Source: an uncultured Candidatus Saccharibacteria bacterium (GTDB lineage: Bacteria > Patescibacteriota > Saccharimonadia > Saccharimonadales > JALRHH01). Taken from it: a stretch of DNA of 64,000 nucleotides. This document shows, piece after piece, positions 529-19,660 of the stretch. The stretch is taken from assembly GCA_964474995.1 (NCBI GenBank), contig CAYYUY010000005.1:7816-71815 (forward strand). Reading direction: 5' to 3'. The translations under genes and the position numbers were made by a program. The notes below the pieces were generated by a model. That model searched no databases. It saw nothing but the letters and a program-made list of their open reading frames with translations, and was not told where the DNA came from. Every line of letters begins with the position of its first letter. Within the stretch, counting starts at the first letter, position 1.

Positions 529-3519
529 TTGGACTATAATTTGAACAGAGATATATGGTTTATGACAGATAATGGTAAGAACGAAGAGAAGATACATATA
601 ATCCTACAGGAGTTTAGGGGTAATATCCGGCTGTACGAAGAACTTTGCACTCTTAATATCAAACCACTCTTAGAAAAACTTCTTGCCGATTCAGGTATTA
701 AGGCACAGGCAGTAACTGCACGAGCTAAAAGTTATAAATCGTATGAGCAAAAAATACGCACTAGATCCGAAGCTGGGCAAAAAACGAAAAAATACAATGA
801 AATAAGAGACCTGGCTGGTTGTAGGGTAATCTTCTACCAGGAAGATGATCTAGGGGCATTTATAAGCGTTGTTAGAGAGCAATTTGGAGTTGTACACGAG
901 AAGCAAGAAGTTAATGAAGATGGCTATAATGCTACTCACTTGACGGTTAAACTTAATGCCGAGCGTTCTAAACTACCCGAATATAAAAAGTTTGCCGATA
1001 TGCTTTGTGAGATACAGTTTACAACTGTATTAGCACACGCTTGGGCGGAACAAAATCACGATCTGATTTATAAAGACCAAGATCAGCTTAGAAAATTTGA
1101 TCCTCAAGGCTATGAAGCATTGGACACTGAACTTAAGGCAATTATGAAAGAACACTTAATACCGGCGACTAGACGCTTCGGTATCGTACAGAAAAAAGCG
1201 GAAAGGATTAGAGAAGGTCAGAAGATTTTTAACACAGATTATCTAAGCTCTATCCCTAGCATTGAGAATAACAATGAGATGTACGACCAGCTCAAGCTCT
1301 TGGAAAGTTACGTGAAAGAACTGAGCGAAGAGAAAACACCTGATGATGTTAATATCATTGATCTCCTAAAAAAAGCGATTGAGCAATCTAAGAAGAATAA
1401 AGTCAGACAAGATGTATCGATTTTTGGTAAAACTCCCGGGAAGAACCAACTAGACATTATTGATGTAGTCATAGACATACTTGATGTTCCATTATTAAAA
1501 TACAACCACTTTAGTGAGGTCTTTGCGATTTTCCAGGAGTTCAGCAAGCACAAAAACAAACACATCAAAGAAAAGGCCTTAAAGAGTATTGTTGACCTTG
1601 CTAAATACAACTACCACGTTATTAAGCAGGTTGATTACGCATTCCAACTTGAGCTAATAACTAAGCTTGAAAAACTACCTTTAACAATCTTGATGAACCC
1701 GGCGGAAGCAACAATAAAAATGCTTGAGGAGTTACTTGATACATCATTTGAAGGAACTAGCTTTGACCCAAAGACACAAGCTCTAACTTTGCACTCAGGA
1801 CCACTTATAGCGACTGATGATTTAAAAAATATTCGCAAAACTGCCTTAGGTATTCTCTTTAGAATGTACGAAAAAACTAAGAGCTTTGAGCTTAAAGAAC
1901 AAGTGATGAGCGCTATTCAGAATGCAACCAGATTGCCTCATACGGGCGATTGTAGTGATGAACTAGTTAAACTGCTCGAAGAAAGCGGCAGGCAGGTAAT
2001 TAATTTCTTCCACAAGAACGCTCCGGAAGCACCACTGGCTCTACTGCTTGATATGGAAGAAGAACTTATATGGTTGCGTAAAAGATTTAAGCGAGAGAAC
2101 CTTGGCAATCTTGAGCAAATGATTGATATTCTAAAAGCCAATGATGACTACCAAGTATACCGTGTTCTCGCCGGATATCCGGGAAGATTAACGATTGATC
2201 CTTCTGATCTTGAGATAGAAAAGGAGCTACGTGAAGAAAAAGCCGAAGAGTTCATTGATAGCTTTAGCCAAGACACAAAGGAATTGTGGCACAAACGTAT
2301 ACTGAACATTGCTAATAACTACGAACCGGGTGGAAGAAGACTTATTTACTTTGAAGAGTTTTTGGTCAAGCTGGGTACTAAAAAACCAGAGCTTGTTTTA
2401 GGTTTTATTAATGAGCACGAAGAAGAACTAGGTGACTATTTAAACTTCTTACTTAAAGGCGTGCTTACTACTGGGTTTAAAGACCAAGCAATAGAACTTA
2501 TTGACGGCTGGATTGAAGTGGGAAAGCATTTATCTCAAACCGTCTTTGCCGTTTGGGAATTAAGTCTTGACCAAAAAAGGCTTGAAAAAATTCTTGAAAA
2601 AGCTTTAGAAAAAAATGAAGGCTTCGCTTTAATTGCATTGCTTAGGCTGGTTTTTAAAAGTTATGCCGAACTTCCTGCTGATGTCGCAAGTAAAATCATC
2701 TTTAGCATTACTGGTTCACTTGACAGTAAAAGATACCGCCATTGGCTTGAGTTCGTCTGGTATAACAAAGAAACCCTCAATCAATTCGTTGATAGCTTAA
2801 GCGACAGTGATATAGACGTGCTACTTAGAAGCTTCATTAAAGCTGATCGGATTGATTATCACTTCAATGATGTGCTTGAAAGTATCGCAAGGAAGCACCC
2901 AAAGAAAGTAATGGAGTTCTTCAAAACCCGTGTTCTTTATAAAAAAAATAAGCGAGCTGCAAATAAAGATTACTTTAGGTACGACGCAATTCCTTACCAC
3001 TTAGATGATCTTGGTGTTGAACTCAGAAAACACCCCAAAGAAGTATTACCAGAGCTTGTCAGCTGGTTGAGTGATAAGGTTCCGCTATTGCGTTGGGAAA
3101 CTGCACACTTCTTCTCTAACCTATATCCTACATTTGAAGATCCGCTAAGTACTTATCTAGAAGAAGTTGTAGATACAAAAGATACCAAGAAGATTGAGAA
3201 TATTGTATTGCCCGTTTTGCGTGAATATAAGGGTCAAGGCTTTACCCACCCGGTATGCAAGAAGATCGTAAAGTATTACGCCGACAAATATGACAGCGAT
3301 TTATTTATTGCTCTTTCACAAACTGGCGTTGTAAGTGGCGAATACGGCTTCGTAGGGGCTTACCAAGCAAAACAAGCGGAAATAAAACCCTGGCTTGAAG
3401 ATGAAGACAGCAAGGTAAAAGCCTTTGCCGAACGATATACTGCTTGGCTTGAAAAACGTATACGTTGGGAAAAGAAACGAGCTGATGACGATAAGGCGTC
3501 ACGAGAGGCCGGACTGTAG
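529..3519 (+). CDS. large RelA/SpoT-domain (alarmone synthetase / toxSAS-type nucleotidyltransferase) protein with ~800-aa C-terminal alpha-helical repeat domain
   Basis: N-terminal ~200 aa carry the (p)ppGpp-synthetase fold motifs in order: RAKSYKSYEQKIRTR (RxKS), DLAGCRVIFY (DxxGxR), DGYNATHLTV (GYxxxH), EIQFTT (EIQxRT-like) and HAWAEQNHDLIYK (HxxYK). The remainder is helix-rich with HEAT-like repeats and no recognisable enzymatic motif. The whole ORF is visibly AT-rich relative to its neighbours. The start is uncertain: TTG at 529 or ATG at 562. Confidence 0.7.
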   Translation: MDYNLNRDIWFMTDNGKNEEKIHIILQEFRGNIRLYEELCTLNIKPLLEKLLADSGIKAQAVTARAKSYKSYEQKIRTRSEAGQKTKKYNEIRDLAGCRVIFYQEDDLGAFISVVREQFGVVHEKQEVNEDGYNATHLTVKLNAERSKLPEYKKFADMLCEIQFTTVLAHAWAEQNHDLIYKDQDQLRKFDPQGYEALDTELKAIMKEHLIPATRRFGIVQKKAERIREGQKIFNTDYLSSIPSIENNNEMYDQLKLLESYVKELSEEKTPDDVNIIDLLKKAIEQSKKNKVRQDVSIFGKTPGKNQLDIIDVVIDILDVPLLKYNHFSEVFAIFQEFSKHKNKHIKEKALKSIVDLAKYNYHVIKQVDYAFQLELITKLEKLPLTILMNPAEATIKMLEELLDTSFEGTSFDPKTQALTLHSGPLIATDDLKNIRKTALGILFRMYEKTKSFELKEQVMSAIQNATRLPHTGDCSDELVKLLEESGRQVINFFHKNAPEAPLALLLDMEEELIWLRKRFKRENLGNLEQMIDILKANDDYQVYRVLAGYPGRLTIDPSDLEIEKELREEKAEEFIDSFSQDTKELWHKRILNIANNYEPGGRRLIYFEEFLVKLGTKKPELVLGFINEHEEELGDYLNFLLKGVLTTGFKDQAIELIDGWIEVGKHLSQTVFAVWELSLDQKRLEKILEKALEKNEGFALIALLRLVFKSYAELPADVASKIIFSITGSLDSKRYRHWLEFVWYNKETLNQFVDSLSDSDIDVLLRSFIKADRIDYHFNDVLESIARKHPKKVMEFFKTRVLYKKNKRAANKDYFRYDAIPYHLDDLGVELRKHPKEVLPELVSWLSDKVPLLRWETAHFFSNLYPTFEDPLSTYLEEVVDTKDTKKIENIVLPVLREYKGQGFTHPVCKKIVKYYADKYDSDLFIALSQTGVVSGEYGFVGAYQAKQAEIKPWLEDEDSKVKAFAERYTAWLEKRIRWEKKRADDDKASREAGL

Positions 3520-3637: not shown

Positions 3638-3713
3638 TGGCAGGGGTGGCCGGGTTCGAACCGACGACACCTGGTTTTGGAGACCAGTGCTCTACCAACT
3701 GAGCTACACCCCT
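3638..3713 (-). tRNA. trpT: tRNA-Trp (anticodon CCA), CCA 3' end encoded
   Basis: The reverse complement folds as a canonical 76-nt cloverleaf: AGGGGTG-TA-GCTC-AGTTGGTA-GAGC-A-CTGGT-CTCCAAA-ACCAG-GTGTC-GTCGG-TTCGAAC-CCGGC-CACCCCT-G-CCA. The anticodon loop CTCCAAA gives anticodon CCA. Confidence 0.85.
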
Positions 3714-3824: not shown

Positions 3825-4490
3825 ATGAGTTCTAAACTTCGGCTGACACGCCCAACACTATTTATGGTTTATGGTTACCCTGGTGCAGGCAAGACCTTTT
3901 TTGCGCGCCAATTCTGCGAGGATATCACCGCAGCACACCTGCAAGGTGAGCGGATTCGTTCAGAACTGTTTGAAGACCCCCGCTATGACAGTGAAGAAAA
4001 TGGGATCGTCACCCACCTCCTCGACTATATGACTGGCGAATTCCTGACCGCTGAAGTCAGCGTGGTGTACGATGTGAACGCCCTTCGCATGTCACAGCGC
4101 CGTGAACTGCGAGAAATGGCCCGCAAACACAAAGCAGAAGTTGTCATGTTATGGTTCCAGATTGACGCCGAAAGCGCCTTTGCACGTGCGCACAAGCGTG
4201 ATCGCCGCCGCGTTGATGACAAATACTCCGAGTCAATCGACCGCACAACTTTCCAAAGCATTGCTGGTGGCATGCAAAACCCGGGCCTCAAAGAAGAATA
4301 CGTGGTGATTAGCGGCAAACACACCTACCAGACGCAGCGTGCGTCGGTACTAAAGAAGTTGTATGATACAGGCCTCCTGGATACCAGCGCTGCCAAGGGC
4401 AACGTCGTGAAGCCTGGTCTAGTGAACTTGATCCCAAATCCTCTTGGTGGTCGCGTGGACGATACGCGTCGCAATATCTTTATTCGTTAG
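3825..4490 (+). CDS. P-loop kinase, zeta-toxin / polynucleotide-kinase-like (AAA_33-type) ATP-binding protein
   Basis: Walker A motif GYPGAGKTFFAR lies right after the proposed ATG (MSSKLRL...). An AAHLQGERIRSELF motif resembles the PNK/zeta kinase fold. The ORF-track start at 3687 overlaps the tRNA and is rejected; the first ATG after the tRNA is at 3825. Confidence 0.65.
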   Translation: MSSKLRLTRPTLFMVYGYPGAGKTFFARQFCEDITAAHLQGERIRSELFEDPRYDSEENGIVTHLLDYMTGEFLTAEVSVVYDVNALRMSQRRELREMARKHKAEVVMLWFQIDAESAFARAHKRDRRRVDDKYSESIDRTTFQSIAGGMQNPGLKEEYVVISGKHTYQTQRASVLKKLYDTGLLDTSAAKGNVVKPGLVNLIPNPLGGRVDDTRRNIFIR

Positions 4491-4510
4491 TTCCAAAAGG
4501 AAGGCTGATT

Positions 4511-5206
4511 ATGGCCATTAAGCGAGTCGAAATCGATGGTATTGGTACTGTGGCACTGATGAAGCGTCGCGGCGCTCGTAGTGTACGACTAAGCATTGCA
4601 CATAACGGTGAGGTACGAGTGAGCTTGCCAGCCTGGGCGCCGTACAAACTCGGTATTGATTTCATCAGCTCCAAACTTGAGTGGATCAAGGCACAGCAAC
4701 CGGCTGTCACTGATCTGCAGACCAAACAACGGGTGGGCAAGGCACATCACCTTGTATTTGTACGTGGCGAGGGCACCACCGTCAGTACACGCATCGTTGG
4801 CAATGAAATACGTATCCTTATGCCACCAGGTTCTGACCTGACTGACCAAGCAGTGCAAATAGCTGCCGAGAAGGCCGCTATACGTGCGCTGAAGAAAGAA
4901 GCCAAAGGTTTATTGCCCATTCGTCTGAAGCAACTGGCACAGCAGTATGGGTTTAGTTACAAATCAGTGGCTATCAAGCAACTCAAGGGCCGCTGGGGCA
5001 GTTGTACCGAGCAAAAGGACATTGTACTCAACTGTTTTCTGATGCAGCTTCCATGGCATCTGATTGACTACGTGCTCATTCACGAGCTGACACATACCGA
5101 GATCATGGCTCATGGCCCGCTGTTTTGGGAGGAAGTAGCTCGCTACACGCCAAATCTGAAAGCTGTTCGTCAAGAAATCAAAACCCACAAGCCAGTTCTG
5201 AGCTAG
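4511..5206 (+). CDS. DUF45 / YgjP-like (M48/SprT-like) zinc metallopeptidase-fold protein
   Basis: HExxH motif (IHELTHTEIMAHG) near the C-terminus. Size (~230 aa) and N-terminal beta-rich region are typical of the YgjP/DUF45 family. GGCTGA RBS-like sequence upstream. Confidence 0.7.
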   Translation: MAIKRVEIDGIGTVALMKRRGARSVRLSIAHNGEVRVSLPAWAPYKLGIDFISSKLEWIKAQQPAVTDLQTKQRVGKAHHLVFVRGEGTTVSTRIVGNEIRILMPPGSDLTDQAVQIAAEKAAIRALKKEAKGLLPIRLKQLAQQYGFSYKSVAIKQLKGRWGSCTEQKDIVLNCFLMQLPWHLIDYVLIHELTHTEIMAHGPLFWEEVARYTPNLKAVRQEIKTHKPVLS

Positions 5207-7830: not shown

Positions 7831-8129
7831 ATTGTCGTTAACTATACCGTATGCCTCGTCCAAATACGATCGGCTTGATGGTGCAGTCCCCGTGGCCACA
7901 TGTGCTGCACTTGAGACAGTTTGGTTTTGAGTCTGCGGAGCGCAAGGGAGTCGTACCCAAGTACGGCGACAGCGCACCGTAAGGATTCAAGGCCAAAATG
8001 GCCAAGAATCAAGCGGGTTGCGAACTCCGCTCGTAAGCAGGCTTGACGGTGCAGACACATGTGGAGTACTATTGACTTGTTCGGAACTACATATATGGTA
8101 GTTCTTTTTTAATGCCTAGGAGGCCGAAG

Positions 8130-8558
8130 GTGGCAGAGAGCAAGGATAAAAAGACAGTCCTGACTGTCAAAAAGAAGGAAACTATCCGCGAGCGCGCTGA
8201 CAAAGCGACAAACGCGGTACCAAAAAAGCGACGTCTTCGCACTGGCGCCAACGCTGCGGGTAAGCCAATTCGTAAGCTTGGTCGTATAATCGCCAAGATT
8301 TTTCGTCCACTTGGCTTTGTACTCAAGCCATTCAAGACTCGACCAGCCCGTTTCATCGGTCGCGTACTAGCATCTGTATTGCTGTTTCGCTTCTTCCGTG
8401 ACGCCTGGAAAGAGCTTCGCCAAGTTGTCTGGCCAGACCGCCGCACAACTGTTCGTCTGACATTCGCCGTCTTCATGTTCGCACTTATTTTCGGCATTAT
8501 TATTGCAATAGTAGACTTTGGTCTCGATAAAGTATTCAAAAAGGTCTTCCTGCAATAA
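8130..8558 (+). CDS. secE: preprotein translocase subunit SecE (with basic N-terminal extension)
   Basis: C-terminal SecE signature ELRQVVWPDRRTTVRLTFAVFMFALIFGIIIAIVDFGLDKV. Position immediately upstream of nusG-rplK-rplA. GTG at 8130 is preceded by AGGAGG at 8118-8123; the ORF track gives ATG 8112 in the same frame. Confidence 0.8.
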   Translation: MAESKDKKTVLTVKKKETIRERADKATNAVPKKRRLRTGANAAGKPIRKLGRIIAKIFRPLGFVLKPFKTRPARFIGRVLASVLLFRFFRDAWKELRQVVWPDRRTTVRLTFAVFMFALIFGIIIAIVDFGLDKVFKKVFLQ

Positions 8559-13583: not shown

Positions 13584-14297
13584 GTGGGGGTCTACAGCAA
13601 CATTCAAATTCGCGAAGCGCTAGAGGAAGGGCATATTGTTTGTGTACCTTTTAATGATAAGCACGTTGCACACGCCAGCCTCGACGTAACGCTTGGCTAT
13701 TACTACTACCGAACCGGCCAGTCAAAGCGTGGTTATGTCTACAATCCATTTGATGAGCGTGATGTTCGTCGCTACTTTGGCGAAGCACAGCAAGCAGTGA
13801 TTCACCAAGATTGGGCCAATGCAAACGGTGTCGAACCACTTGCCAATATTCCACTCGATCACCCTGTCATTCCACTTCGTCCTGGTGAGCGCATCCTCGC
13901 GCACACACATGAATTCTTTGGCATCAAGCCACCTGGTGCGTATCAGGTCAAGGCACGTAGTAGCTGGGGCCGTAACGGCGTGGCTGTCTGTTTTGACGCT
14001 GGTTGGGTTGATCCAGGGTATATCAACCGCCTAACACTTGAAATCTACAACCTCAACGAGCATGAGACGGTACTCATACCTGTTGGAGAGCGTATCGCCC
14101 AAGCTGTGTTCCTGACGACAGGTGAAGTCGAAGGCAGCTACGGCAAGGGTCGTGATGGTGGTTTCAGTGGTAAATACCAACAAGGGGACAACCTTGATGA
14201 GATTATCAGTAGATGGACACCTGAAATGTTGCTTCCACGGGCTTACAAAGACGCTCGAACCCTCCCGGAGGAGATCAAAGGTTTAAAAGCACGATGA
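13584..14297 (+). CDS. dcd: dCTP deaminase family protein (Dcd-like, possibly bifunctional dCTP deaminase/dUTPase)
   Basis: GTG start preceded by AGAGGGAG. N-terminus IQIREALEEGHIVCVPFNDKHVAHASLDVTLG matches the Dcd/dUTPase-fold motif. C-terminal YGKGRDGGFSGKYQ matches the Dcd tail. Overlaps the next ORF by 4 nt (operon). Confidence 0.7.
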   Translation: MGVYSNIQIREALEEGHIVCVPFNDKHVAHASLDVTLGYYYYRTGQSKRGYVYNPFDERDVRRYFGEAQQAVIHQDWANANGVEPLANIPLDHPVIPLRPGERILAHTHEFFGIKPPGAYQVKARSSWGRNGVAVCFDAGWVDPGYINRLTLEIYNLNEHETVLIPVGERIAQAVFLTTGEVEGSYGKGRDGGFSGKYQQGDNLDEIISRWTPEMLLPRAYKDARTLPEEIKGLKAR

Positions 14298-16636
14298 GCG
14301 CAAAATCTACGCCTACCAAAGGAGTGTTCCTGGTTATTGAAGGTACTGATGGCTCCGGCAAGGGTACGCAGTTCAAGAAGCTCGTAGAACGGCTGACAAC
14401 TGAAGGCTACGACGTTGCTACCTTTGACTTTCCGCAGTATGAGCAGCCTTCAAGCTACTTTGTCCGCGAATATCTAAATGGCAACTATGGCACGGCAGAA
14501 GAAGTTGGCCCATACACTGGATCACTCTTTTACGCGCTTGATCGCTTCCAGGCTGCCAAAGAAATCCGCGCTGCAATTGATGCTGGAAAAGTTGTCATTG
14601 CCAACCGTTTCACTGGCTCTAACATGGCCCATCAAGGCACCAAGTTCAGTAACGCCGAAGAGCGTCGTGGATATTTCATCTGGCTTGATAATCTCGAGTT
14701 TCAGATGCTCAATATACCACGCCCAGATCGTTCGATTGTGCTCCGAGTTCCAGCTGCTACTGCACAGAAACTTGTTGATCAAAAAGAAACACGTAGCTAT
14801 ACCGATAAAAAGCGCGACATCCACGAAGCTGACCTGAGTCACCTGGAACGAGCAGTTGAAGTCTATGACGATCTCTGCAATCTGTTTCCGAAAGACTTCA
14901 CCCGCATTGATTGCGTTCGTGGTGATAACCTCCTCGATATCGATACTATCCACGACTTGCTCTGGAAGACACTCGAAGCCCATCTACCAGCAAAAGGTAC
15001 TACATCAACCACGACCACTACCAAGCCGGCATTGACCGAAACTGTCGTGCAGCCGTTCGTGAACAAGACTGATTATGGCTACGAGATGACTGCTGAAGGT
15101 GATGCATTTTTGCAGGATGCCGTCACTAGTACCACCGACAACGTCTATGCTTTCACCGACAAACTAAGTCCTATTACTATTGCCGCCGCCATGGCCCGTC
15201 TCAGCCGCCGAGGTGATGATATGCGCATTACAATCCTCGATGAATTTGCCGGTGCAAAAGGCAAAGATGAAAAACTTCTCCAGCGTGTCATTACTGCCTT
15301 TGGTGATGATTCCGTACAACAACTTGTTGGCCAACACGTAGTAATCGAAGGTGCTTCAAATTTGCTGACCAAAAAGCTTGAATGGGGTCGCCTGGCATCA
15401 TATCTTGAGCAATCAACGCGCTACATTTACTTTGATCAAAAAGACAAAGACGGCAAGTATAAATACTACGTGCCTGAATATTTTGACGCCAAGACCAAGC
15501 AAACATATATTACAGGCAACGACCAGATCTTTGACTTGTATTCAGATATGGTTCGCAAGCTGACCAAGCATGTGCGTGATAGCTCTAACACACCAAAAGA
15601 AGAACAAGATATGGCATGGCAAGGTGCGACGCGTGCCCAAGCCTGTGACGCCATTCGTGCTGTACTACCTGTATCTACTAAGTCTACGGTAGGTATTTAT
15701 GCCTCTGGCCAGGCATACGAAAGCCTTATCATGCACCTTCTCAGTGACGAATTGCCCGAAGCCCGCGAAACAGGGCAGAAGCTACTAGAACATGGTCGCA
15801 AGATCATTCCAGCCTTTCTGGAACGTGCCGACAAGCCTGATCGTGGTGGTGCACTGGTAGCCTACCGTGCAAACACGGCAAATGCCGTCAAGAAACTAGC
15901 TGAAGAATTACTACCTGATAACCACGCCTCTGAGACAGAACCAGTTACATTAGTTAACTTCTGGCCTCGTAACGAGCTCGACCTTGTACCAGATATGCTT
16001 TACGAACACAGCAGCCTACCACTCAAAGAGCTCCAATCAGAAACACAGAAATGGTCTATGACACAGAAAGAGCAGGTATTTAACACCTACATGGGCGAAC
16101 GCCTCAACCGTCGCCATCGACCGGGCAGGGCAGTCGAAAAAGCACATTACAGCTGGGATCTCGTCTGTGATTATGGTATTTTCCGTGATTTGCAACGCCA
16201 CCGTATGGTTGATGATCTCAACTGGCAGCTTCTGACACCACGCTATGGCTACGAAGTGCCTGAGCTCGTGGATGAAGCCAATCTGACCGATCAGTTCATT
16301 GAGTGTTTTGACCTTAGTCTCAAACTCTACAGCACCCTGCAACAAGCCGGATATGCACTCGAAGCCCAATATGCAACACTCCTTGGCCACCGTATGCGCT
16401 GGAAAATCACCTACAATGCCCGTGAAGCTTTCCACCTGCACGAACTACGCACCACGCCGCAAGGCCACCCAGGTTACCGTAAACTCGTCAAAGAAATGCA
16501 CGAAAAGCTTGCCGAGGTGCACCCACTCTTTGGTGAAGCCATGCGCTTCGTCAACAAAGGCGAAGATGAGGCACTGACTCGTTTGGCTGCCGAACGCTAC
16601 ACACAGTACAAGCTACAGCAGCTTGATAACAAATAA
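14294..16636 (+). CDS. fusion protein: thymidylate kinase (N-terminal) + tandem ThyX-like flavin-dependent thymidylate synthase domains (C-terminal)
   Basis: Residues ~1-230: FLVIEGTDGSGKGTQ P-loop and DRF motif of Tmk. Middle domain: GDDSVQQLVGQHVVIEGASNLLTKKLEWGRLASYLEQSTRY aligns with the ThyX RHRxxS...S.RY motif, with RHR replaced by WGR. Last domain: FRDLQRHRMVDDLNWQLLTPRY retains RHR, and MRWKITYNAREAFHLHELR matches the ThyX (M)NARE..H(F)..LR motif. Confidence 0.7.
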   Translation: MSAKSTPTKGVFLVIEGTDGSGKGTQFKKLVERLTTEGYDVATFDFPQYEQPSSYFVREYLNGNYGTAEEVGPYTGSLFYALDRFQAAKEIRAAIDAGKVVIANRFTGSNMAHQGTKFSNAEERRGYFIWLDNLEFQMLNIPRPDRSIVLRVPAATAQKLVDQKETRSYTDKKRDIHEADLSHLERAVEVYDDLCNLFPKDFTRIDCVRGDNLLDIDTIHDLLWKTLEAHLPAKGTTSTTTTTKPALTETVVQPFVNKTDYGYEMTAEGDAFLQDAVTSTTDNVYAFTDKLSPITIAAAMARLSRRGDDMRITILDEFAGAKGKDEKLLQRVITAFGDDSVQQLVGQHVVIEGASNLLTKKLEWGRLASYLEQSTRYIYFDQKDKDGKYKYYVPEYFDAKTKQTYITGNDQIFDLYSDMVRKLTKHVRDSSNTPKEEQDMAWQGATRAQACDAIRAVLPVSTKSTVGIYASGQAYESLIMHLLSDELPEARETGQKLLEHGRKIIPAFLERADKPDRGGALVAYRANTANAVKKLAEELLPDNHASETEPVTLVNFWPRNELDLVPDMLYEHSSLPLKELQSETQKWSMTQKEQVFNTYMGERLNRRHRPGRAVEKAHYSWDLVCDYGIFRDLQRHRMVDDLNWQLLTPRYGYEVPELVDEANLTDQFIECFDLSLKLYSTLQQAGYALEAQYATLLGHRMRWKITYNAREAFHLHELRTTPQGHPGYRKLVKEMHEKLAEVHPLFGEAMRFVNKGEDEALTRLAAERYTQYKLQQLDNK

Positions 16637-18958: not shown

Positions 18959-19450
18959 ATGGCCGAACAATCAGTGACCACCGAGCAAGCATTTGACCTC
19001 GCATGGCAGGCAGAGATGCATCACATCGATGCTTATGTTGGCTATCCGGACGTCCAGCAAGACATCCTTGCAACGCGTGCAGCCGAATTACTTGCACCTT
19101 CAGTTGAGACCGTACAGCCAGACATACCCAAGACCATCTATTTAGCGACGAGCGAGCCCGTCATCATGCATGCAGCTCGAACGGGCAGAGAAACAGAACG
19201 CACAGACAAGATCGGCCAGATAATTGCAAAAAACCCTCAGATTCATCTCGAGGCAATGCTTGAGCAGCTATCTCAGTTACGGCTTGATCAGCGGACTGCG
19301 GCAGGGCTCGTAGTATCGATATTGCAAGGACATTTTGACGATGATTCAGAGGAAAGGCAGCTACTCGATAAGTCGTGGGACGAGGCAGTCAAAGTGCTTG
19401 ATCGCTTTCGGGGTCATGTCACCCTTGTCAAAACAACAAAAATTAGCTAA
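18959..19450 (+). CDS. hypothetical protein (163 aa)
   Basis: ORF only; acidic, helix-rich. Confidence 0.4.
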   Translation: MAEQSVTTEQAFDLAWQAEMHHIDAYVGYPDVQQDILATRAAELLAPSVETVQPDIPKTIYLATSEPVIMHAARTGRETERTDKIGQIIAKNPQIHLEAMLEQLSQLRLDQRTAAGLVVSILQGHFDDDSEERQLLDKSWDEAVKVLDRFRGHVTLVKTTKIS

Positions 19451-19660
19451 AATAGAGCCTAAGTTGCCAGAGACAGTAGCGGTCTGAAAGGACTTAAGAA
19501 TGCTACCAAGGTACAAACAATCTCTTTATCGAGCGTTTGAACGTCTTTGTGTCACAGCAAAGACGTTTTTGTTTGGCAACGACATTAGTACAAACCAAGG
19601 TCGAAGGTTTGTCGAAACAAATGGCAGTTTTACTCCGGTAAAACCGCGAAAGGGAAATTC
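19451..19660 (+). promoter_or_regulatory. rplJL leader region (candidate L10(L12)4 autoregulatory leader)
   Basis: 210-nt untranslated region with several stem-loops directly upstream of rplJ. Assigned by position only. Confidence 0.25.

Follow-up and report, generated by a model that had tools for sequence, protein, structure and literature searches.

A candidate single-chain abortive-infection protein from Saccharibacteria: a RelA/SpoT-type head on the alpha-solenoid of a large modular family

Introduction

The design principle that couples a sensor to a toxic enzyme is already known from CapRel, DSR2 and Olokun. CapRel is a fused toxin-antitoxin of the toxic small alarmone synthetase (toxSAS) type, which acts as a phage sensor and uses a tRNA-targeting synthetase as its immune effector (PMC9712102). 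DSR2, the product of a single gene and about 1000 amino acids (aa) long, carries an N-terminal toxic enzyme and a C-terminal alpha-solenoid that senses a phage protein (PMC11087589, PMC11850899), and Olokun, a validated defence system, is a 2:2 complex of the adaptin-like OloA and the PD-(D/E)xK nuclease OloB (bioRxiv 10.1101/2025.07.10.664194). RelA/SpoT-fold enzymes also act in type I PANGU, which combines the nucleoid protein Pag1A with the toxSAS Pag1B/GRel and in which pppGpp aborts infection (bioRxiv 10.64898/2026.04.06.716658), and in the toxSAS modules FaRel, FaRel2, PhRel and PhRel2, which are bicistronic or tricistronic with a neighbouring antitoxin gene (Jimmy et al. 2020, PMC7229694). 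Here we describe a gene that joins a RelA/SpoT-type synthetase head to an alpha-solenoid of about 760 aa. It lies at positions 562-3519 of a 64,000-nucleotide (nt) stretch of DNA from an uncultured Candidatus Saccharibacteria bacterium (assembly GCA_964474995.1, contig CAYYUY010000005.1, positions 7,816 to 71,815), which we call the window.

An initial annotation of this DNA had suggested that the gene encodes a single-chain sensor-effector module. This idea is much strengthened by the occurrence of the same tail with DUF4365, HNH, PIN and SIR2 effectors. The gene is most likely a member of a large modular family, in which a conserved solenoid is combined with an exchangeable toxic effector, and we put at about 0.6 the probability that its product is a single-chain abortive-infection protein whose solenoid would sense an infection cue and relieve the inhibition of the pyrophosphokinase. 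A literature search found no prior description of a RelA/SpoT-solenoid protein, of the solenoid family or of PDC-S33, a candidate defence model to which we return below; members are named 'RelA/SpoT domain-containing protein' or 'hypothetical protein' in RefSeq.

Results

A predicted synthetase head joined to a long solenoid

The gene comprises the following features, with the motifs read from the translation and their conservation measured over 26 diverse family heads.

562-3519, plus strand: coding sequence of the RelA/SpoT-solenoid protein, 985 aa (mechanical start TTG 529, 996 aa; likely start ATG 562)
562-1227, plus strand: N-terminal small-alarmone-synthetase-type RelA/SpoT pyrophosphokinase domain, aa 1-222, including the long alpha1 helix
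721-741, plus strand: R-x-K-x3-S motif, ATP-binding (RAKSYKS); R54, K56 and S60 invariant
808-825, plus strand: D-x-x-G-x-R motif with the catalytic Mg-binding Asp (DLAGCR); D83, G86 and R88 invariant
925-939, plus strand: acceptor-base 'G-loop' motif Y-N-A-T-H; Y122 invariant, H126 nearly so
1009-1026, plus strand: E-I-Q-x-T-T motif with the catalytic Glu (EIQFTT); Q152 invariant, E150, I151 and T155 nearly so
1057-1074, plus strand: H-x3-Y-K motif (HDLIYK); H166, Y170 and K171 invariant
1234-3516, plus strand: C-terminal alpha-solenoid of about 760 aa (aa 225-985) in the AlphaFold model, putative sensor or regulator
3322-3372, plus strand: most conserved stretch of the tail over 50 members, a loop T-G-V-V-S-G-E-Y-G followed by a conserved Lys (TGVVSGEYGFVGAYQAK)

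The open frame of 996 aa that the initial annotation reported runs without interruption from TTG 529 to 3519 on the plus strand. The protein itself is likely somewhat shorter: the database protein P0001, which has 985 aa and is 100% identical to the window protein, starts at the in-frame Met at 562, as do all close homologues, and we therefore take ATG 562 as the likely start.

The assignment of the N-terminal domain to the RelA/SpoT nucleotidyltransferase fold is borne out by a Pfam RelA_SpoT match (PF04607; residues 65-185 of the open reading frame, E 9e-14, 52 bits, with a curated cut-off of 27 bits) together with sequence-profile and structure matches, and the catalytic motifs are all intact, as had been claimed. 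Because these motifs are invariant or nearly so in the 26 heads, the latter are predicted to be active enzymes under purifying selection. An AlphaFold model of the head alone, built with 26 sequences, reached a predicted local distance difference test score (pLDDT) of 91 and a predicted template modelling score (pTM) of 0.83 and depicts a complete small-alarmone-synthetase domain; a C-terminal helical linker occupies aa 181-222. Its best structural match is RelQ/SAS1 (5dec; E 2e-10, template modelling (TM) score 0.80); RelP (6ewz) reaches a TM score of 0.76, the long Rel enzymes rank next, and CapRel (7ztb) appears at rank 36 with an E value of 1.9e-7. Sequence-profile matches of the head include 6fgk (8e-11) and 2be3 (1.5e-10), alignments were also made to 2be3, 3l9d and 5f2v, and CapRel is absent from this profile search at E < 10. 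The earlier description of the head as toxSAS-type calls for a caveat, since it is closer to RelQ and RelP than to characterised toxSAS by both measures.

The likeness to RelQ and RelP extends over the whole synthetase domain including its flanking helices, and the catalytic motifs are shared, yet these are stand-alone housekeeping enzymes of about 200-230 aa, whereas the window head is fused to the solenoid. Moreover, the acceptor loop reads D-[DG]-Y-N-A-x-H in the family and G-Y-[RQ]-S-x-H in RelQ and Rel, and the family has EIQxTT where RelQ and RelP have EIQxRT. With 985 aa and a second module of about 760 aa, the protein falls outside the single-domain small alarmone synthetases (about 200-300 aa). 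It also differs from the long RelA/SpoT homologues (Rel/RelA/SpoT): its tail is an alpha-solenoid, and HD hydrolase, TGS and ACT domains gave no match at E <= 1 in Pfam or NCBIfam, in agreement with the stated lack of a hydrolase domain. Neither charge nor motifs provided a call of the substrate, as the head core is close to neutral (net charge about 0), the family ranges from -8 to +13 without a consistent basic surface, and tRNA-using toxSAS enzymes have, according to the literature, no clear sequence signature.

The full-length AlphaFold model (15 homologues; mean pLDDT 84.9, pTM 0.58) shows an alpha/beta head at aa 1-217, followed by an all-helical solenoid at aa 225-985 with two small beta-hairpins. 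Structural matches of the tail are to generic HEAT/ARM solenoids only, and Pfam HEAT matches stay below threshold; the long HEAT-like helical region described initially is thus supported by the model and by these generic matches. Over 50 members spanning all three architectures of the family (see below), Q362, R425, R557, R790, E927 and K937 are invariant in the tail, as is the TGVVSGEYG loop. No known catalytic or binding signature was recognised in the TGVVSGEYG...K loop or in Q362, R425, R557 and R790. That these residues and the loop are kept across architectures suggests a site with a conserved role, in ligand binding, as a latch or in oligomerisation. In all 120 pairs compared, identity is higher between heads than between tails (41.9% versus 27.5%), in keeping with an enzyme attached to a sensor that evolves more quickly.

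One solenoid, several effectors

The tail defines a large family across bacteria and metagenome-assembled genomes (MAGs) labelled archaeal. A word-indexed search returned only 15 relatives of the window protein. When a tail-only profile was searched against 1.84 billion representatives of clusters at 50% identity, 1571 cluster representatives were found at E <= 1e-3, of which 797 at E <= 1e-30. Full-length RelA-solenoid genes numbered about 55 in a pattern scan with one genome per species. Their bacterial hosts include Nitrospirota, Saccharibacteria and other Patescibacteria, Legionella (among them L. parisiensis and L. rowbothamii), Rickettsiales (from MAGs), Bacillus/Gottfriedia, Paraburkholderia, Polaromonas, Pelomonas and sphingomonads, and further copies occur in MAGs labelled Promethearchaeota, Thermoplasmata, Bathyarchaeota and Methanosarcinales. 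Members are seldom seen in viral collections, with one partial match in IMG/VR and only short, head-only matches in GenBank phages.

Three architectures were distinguished among the best 162 tail matches (loci and proteins are given by L and P numbers). Proteins with a RelA_SpoT head have about 965-1010 aa (head confirmed by Pfam in 16/16 sampled); those with a DUF4365 head, a PD-(D/E)xK domain, have about 1030-1086 aa (11/14 sampled), and their heads also match the PADLOC model of Argonaute-associated restriction endonucleases (REase). The third class consists of 'headless' solenoids of about 745-820 aa, and in metagenomic loci each of the 18 headless members with upstream sequence is preceded, on the same strand, by a partner gene (gap -41 to +10 nt). 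These partners are HNH nucleases in L086 and L091, a separate DUF4365 protein in L108, PIN_12 proteins in six loci (three checked by Pfam) and a SIR2_2 protein in L131 that is ThsA-like at 1.7e-27; the remaining ones encode proteins without a known domain. The partners resemble effectors of established systems, namely ThsA/LmuA SIR2, ZorE and CBASS HNH proteins and the Argonaute-associated REase. That one scaffold is combined with several unrelated toxic enzymes, by fusion or within an operon, is the hallmark of prokaryotic sensor-effector immunity.

Similarity links 11 of the separate partners (HNH, DUF4365 and those of unknown domain), and an alignment of the last 100 residues of each revealed a common C-terminal adaptor domain of about 95 aa, which is possibly winged-helix-like (L086 7342-8004, L091 5324-5992, L108 5046-5990). 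A profile of this adaptor also detects it in fused DUF4365 proteins, where it follows the nuclease and precedes the solenoid (P0030 residues 191-282, E 5e-18).

A 220-aa gene upstream of the headless P0015 was considered as a split RelA head and dismissed, as it encodes an HNH protein. A headless pair is also present in a cultured isolate: plasmid 9 of Legionella adelaidensis (NZ_LR134418.1; L171 4412-7833) encodes a PIN protein and an 806-aa solenoid, which RefSeq calls a 'hypothetical protein'; the pair adjoins a site-specific integrase and is inserted beside rpoD-dnaG-rpsU.

An accessory gene that moves as a cassette

Two features flank the gene.

385-561, no strand assigned: upstream intergenic stretch, by composition part of the low-GC block of the gene, presumed promoter region
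3638-3713, minus strand: tRNA-Trp (CCA), found by ARAGORN and Rfam; marker of an insertion hotspot, not a component of the system

The gene is, as had been observed, much more AT-rich than its neighbours: its GC content is 39.0%, compared with 48.6 +/- 1.9% in the other 47 window genes (z = -5.0), and is the lowest of all 48. The claim that it uses rare AT-rich codons stands in part, as GC at third codon positions is low (36.5% versus 49.2 +/- 3.9%, z = -3.3) but an index resembling the codon adaptation index does not mark the gene as an outlier (z = -1.2). Gene GC is below that of the flanks in 37/44 family loci, with a median difference of -5.5 points. In the window, the low-GC block consists of the gene and its upstream spacer only; a scan of 385-561 for sigma-70 promoters stayed at chance level and gave no convincing match. 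An acidic open reading frame of 29 codons (MDEDRILYSVIENVIPDYDEDYLRWRDDK) lies within this spacer at 416-505, just upstream of the gene, and is probably not conserved, because the closest homologues resemble the window DNA only from nt 561 onwards.

Horizontal acquisition, as proposed initially, is supported by this atypical GC content together with the absence of the gene from the syntenic locus of two related genomes. These genomes, whose NusG is 94-95% identical to that of the window, keep the order AAA_33 - YgjP - histidine kinase - GT2 - SecE - NusG - L11 - L1, and both lack the RelA-solenoid gene. In addition, the DNA similarity of the window to the closest homologues (84% and 70% aa identity) does not extend beyond the gene (nt 561-3519); each of these homologues lies 0.6-1 kb upstream of a large serine recombinase, and the flanks are otherwise unrelated. 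On account of the syntenic absence and the gene-only similarity, we conclude that the gene is a horizontally moving single-gene cassette at a variable site. An integrase was found neither in the window nor in a further 1.5 kb upstream, and a search of the window for a repeat of the tRNA-Trp 3' end, as expected of an att-type island boundary, was negative; the insert is effectively one gene.

The reported adjacency to tRNA-Trp was confirmed: the 3' end of the tRNA faces the gene and is separated from its stop codon by 118 nt. In the relative L166 (188-1787; NusG 94% identical), a 511-aa serine-recombinase gene, itself beside a Phage_CRI-like gene, overlaps the 3' end of the orthologous tRNA-Trp, and genes for an F420 oxidoreductase and a 387-aa protein are extra between tRNA and AAA_33 gene. 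The tRNA-Trp site is thus a hotspot for insertions. Adjacency to a tRNA is local to the window lineage and no family trait: any tRNA lies within 3 kb in only 6/42 family loci, about the chance level, and we accordingly discarded it both as a trait of the family and as a hint to the substrate.

Genomic neighbourhoods

Antitoxin, hydrolase and Panacea-type genes were all sought around the RelA-type gene, and no neighbour is conserved across 66 loci; the antitoxin neighbours that the initial annotation had asked for (Panacea-domain genes, small alarmone hydrolases) did not turn up as conserved neighbours. No neighbour family occurs in more than 7/66 loci, and the recurring ones are generic (histidine kinase, response regulator, integrase). 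The RelA-type gene therefore appears to work alone or with unlinked partners, and the lack of a recurrent antitoxin neighbour sets it apart from the toxSAS toxin-antitoxin arrangement.

Homologue contexts, which had been named as a check on a housekeeping role, are variable and non-housekeeping, and a qualitative tally finds restriction-modification, toxin-antitoxin, abortive-infection or mobile-element neighbours in most annotated ones. L002 lies in a defence island whose other genes encode a PLD-SNF2 helicase, VapBC, a type IIG restriction-modification enzyme, Schlafen-AlbA and PemK; L006 has HigB, an HTH-M78 peptidase and a DUF433/DUF5615 pair; L007 has a ResIII helicase, a methyltransferase and an AAA_15 ATPase; and L008/L009 have BrnTA, ParE, Fic, a resolvase and PIN. 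Integrase genes are also found in these neighbourhoods, and one homologue resides on a conjugative Sphingobium plasmid.

A separate observation concerns three independent loci (L002 2513-12892, L013 6408-15713, L086 757-10445), in which an effector-solenoid gene is co-oriented with a gene for an MmeI/Eco57I-type N6-methyltransferase of about 1100-1170 aa, 8-64 nt apart, in the same string as a PLD-SNF2 helicase fusion of about 1070-1094 aa. The proteins of these strings are only about 30% identical between loci, and the strings may represent a larger composite system resembling restriction-modification.

Relation to described systems

The window protein shares its design with DSR2, and the relative L131 pairs the solenoid with a SIR2_2 protein; the window protein has no SIR2 domain, and the solenoids gave no Dsr2 match. 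CapRel (CapRel-SJ46, PDB 7ZTB), at about 340-370 aa, has a small C-terminal domain in place of the solenoid of about 760 aa, and only the head of the window protein aligns to 7ztb (162-179 residues). PANGU resembles our proposal in that a synthetase-fold effector stays inactive until activated by a sensor, but it comprises two genes, its sensor is a nucleoid protein, its enzyme carries a DNA-mimic C-terminal domain and it has no solenoid; the comparison is by shared fold.

Olokun likewise combines a helical-repeat subunit with a toxic effector, and relatives of the window protein occur as two-gene operons of nuclease and solenoid, including one with a DUF4365 PD-(D/E)xK partner (L108). Tails of all three architectures gave weak matches to the PADLOC OloA model (P0030 5.3e-9; P0071, of the RelA class, 2.3e-8; L123 solenoid 2.7e-4), although they match only about 50-390 of its 596 positions. 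The effector of the window protein differs from that of Olokun in being a pyrophosphokinase fused in cis rather than a nuclease subunit, and OloB had no match in any protein scanned.

The PADLOC version 2 models that we searched do not cover the solenoid family. They do include the single-gene candidate PDC-S33, which is matched by head and linker (E 5.6e-13, positions 35-270 of 349) and also by 10/10 further RelA-class members tested. This model, of 349 positions, lacks the solenoid, its C-terminal end is not covered by the match, and it stands for a candidate defence system only. The statement that the protein matches no described family consequently needs qualification: a published description was not found, but the head matches PDC-S33 and the tails of relatives weakly match OloA.

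Other genes of the window

Immediately past the tRNA-Trp lie genes for an AAA_33/zeta-toxin-like kinase and a YgjP-like metallopeptidase (3825-5206), whose order is kept in the two related genomes. SecE (8112-8558) has 148 aa, with the SecE domain at residues 93-145 only, after a long lysine/arginine-rich N-terminal extension. The open reading frame for ribosomal protein L1 (9816-10913) has 365 aa and its Pfam L1 match begins only at residue 168, while L1 proteins of relatives have 335-338 aa; in this lineage, it seems, either the N terminus carries a long extension or the start is mis-set. An open reading frame of 780 aa at 14294-16636 is the counterpart of a 779-aa L166 gene with Thymidylate_kin and Thy1 (ThyX) Pfam domains and appears to be a thymidylate synthase-kinase fusion; a dCTP-deaminase-like gene adjoins it. 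Rfam L10_leader is found above the gathering threshold at 19449-19580, upstream of the rplJ region.

Discussion

How might the solenoid control the synthetase? We envision a scenario whereby, in the uninfected cell, the solenoid holds the head inactive, through an intramolecular contact or through the oligomeric state of the protein, and whereby the binding of an infection-associated cue to the solenoid releases or activates the head. The latter would then move pyrophosphate from ATP to the 3'-OH of a purine nucleotide, producing (p)ppGpp or (pp)pApp and draining ATP and GTP, or alternatively it would pyrophosphorylate the CCA end of tRNA; either way, growth and phage replication would come to a halt. 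We slightly favour the nucleotide route, because the head resembles RelQ and RelP and is without a consistent basic surface (net core charge about 0).

Several of our observations weigh against such a role in abortive infection. Both its sequence and its structure place the head nearer to the housekeeping enzymes RelQ and RelP than to characterised toxSAS. A sensor of variable phage proteins would not usually have invariant polar residues and a strongly conserved loop, and the full-length model, at pTM 0.58, leaves the interdomain geometry uncertain. No defence genes adjoin the window copy, its neighbours being tRNA-Trp, the AAA_33 kinase, the YgjP-like peptidase and a histidine kinase, and some homologues lie in plain metabolic or metal-efflux contexts (L005 and L170 are without defence neighbours). 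Matches to OloA are found in a minority of members (6/50), the window protein itself gave no match to the OloA model at E <= 1, and the adaptor domain of about 95 aa was not detected by its profile in the RelA class.

Part of this evidence would suit a regulated alarmone synthetase of RelQ/RelP type that serves stress signalling, with a solenoid that docks a cellular partner or ligand and thereby tunes (p)ppGpp. The nearest relatives of the head (6fgk 8e-11, 2be3 1.5e-10; 5dec TM 0.80), the want of an accompanying antitoxin or hydrolase gene in the 66 loci, the polar residues that suggest a conserved ligand and the contexts that are not defence-like all speak for this alternative. It nevertheless appears unlikely to us: the domains coupled to the same tail (HNH, PD-(D/E)xK, PIN and SIR2) are toxins rather than enzymes of signalling, and the gene is accessory, of low GC and absent at the same locus in related genomes, with a sporadic distribution over bacteria and MAGs labelled archaeal, on plasmids and beside recombinases. 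That mobility would also suit a fused toxin-antitoxin, or addiction module, which stabilises the mobile DNA that carries it and in which the solenoid is only a cis-acting antitoxin and senses no phage. A single gene moves as a cassette, adjoins serine recombinases, occurs on plasmids and often has toxin-antitoxin genes as neighbours, and fused toxSAS toxin-antitoxin proteins such as CapRel do exist (PMC9712102). However, a conserved solenoid of about 760 aa far exceeds any known cis-antitoxin, five or more effector types on one module, in fusions and operons, form the pattern of sensor-effector immunity, and the fused toxin-antitoxin proteins characterised so far have proved to be phage sensors, so that we regard an addiction module as quite improbable.

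Two further alternatives are much less probable. The protein might be a subunit of a restriction-modification-like system, made up of the PLD-SNF2 helicase, the MmeI/Eco57I-type methyltransferase and the effector-solenoid protein, and thus not act autonomously. The co-oriented methyltransferase gene at 8-64 nt and the nearby PLD-SNF2 fusion do recur in L002, L013 and L086/L087, with only about 30% identity between the proteins of different loci. Such a role is nevertheless very doubtful: of about 75 loci, only 3 or 4 show the association, and it is missing from all metagenomic headless loci and from the window. Most remote, in our estimate, is a toxin that is exported or injected into other cells, in the manner of Tas1 or of a Legionella or Rickettsiales effector with eukaryote-like HEAT repeats. 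Legionella parisiensis, L. rowbothamii and Rickettsiales MAGs do carry homologues, the tail is similar to eukaryotic HEAT/ARM proteins, and exported alarmone synthetases are known (PMC12691689), of which 8vx3 is a weak structural match to the head; but the enzyme begins directly at the alpha1 helix of the synthetase, without a signal or trafficking domain, no immunity gene is conserved next to it in the 66 loci, and the family spans free-living bacteria, candidate-phyla lineages and MAGs labelled archaeal.

Returning to a single-chain abortive-infection protein, a bolder extension of this reading, to which we give a little less than even odds, is that the solenoid represents an unrecognised and very large immune superfamily, with at least 1500 clusters at 50% identity across many bacterial phyla, candidate-phyla lineages and MAGs labelled archaeal. 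Its scaffold, with the invariant TGVVSGEYG loop and a constellation of Arg, Gln, Glu and Lys residues, would detect a conserved cue and drive at least five unrelated effectors (RelA/SpoT, DUF4365, HNH, PIN and SIR2), fused or encoded in a two-gene operon. Olokun would have branched off from this superfamily in a shortened form, and the window gene would encode the first alarmone-synthetase (or tRNA-pyrophosphokinase) immune protein of the class.

If the reading as an immune protein is right, the gene would be an entry point to a widespread and unnamed family of prokaryotic immune proteins, through which the poorly understood Olokun would be connected to a far wider group of sensors built on solenoids. 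The gene would also exemplify a second, structurally unrelated way, after CapRel, in which a RelA/SpoT-fold enzyme is wired to infection sensing within a single polypeptide. With one scaffold, five effector chemistries and few invariant residues, both the trigger and the mechanism of activation should be accessible to mutagenesis, and, given the RelQ/RelP-like head, the nature of the product would tell how easily housekeeping alarmone chemistry becomes a weapon. The occurrence of these proteins in uncultured lineages with small genomes and in MAGs labelled archaeal would, finally, bear on how such organisms defend themselves.

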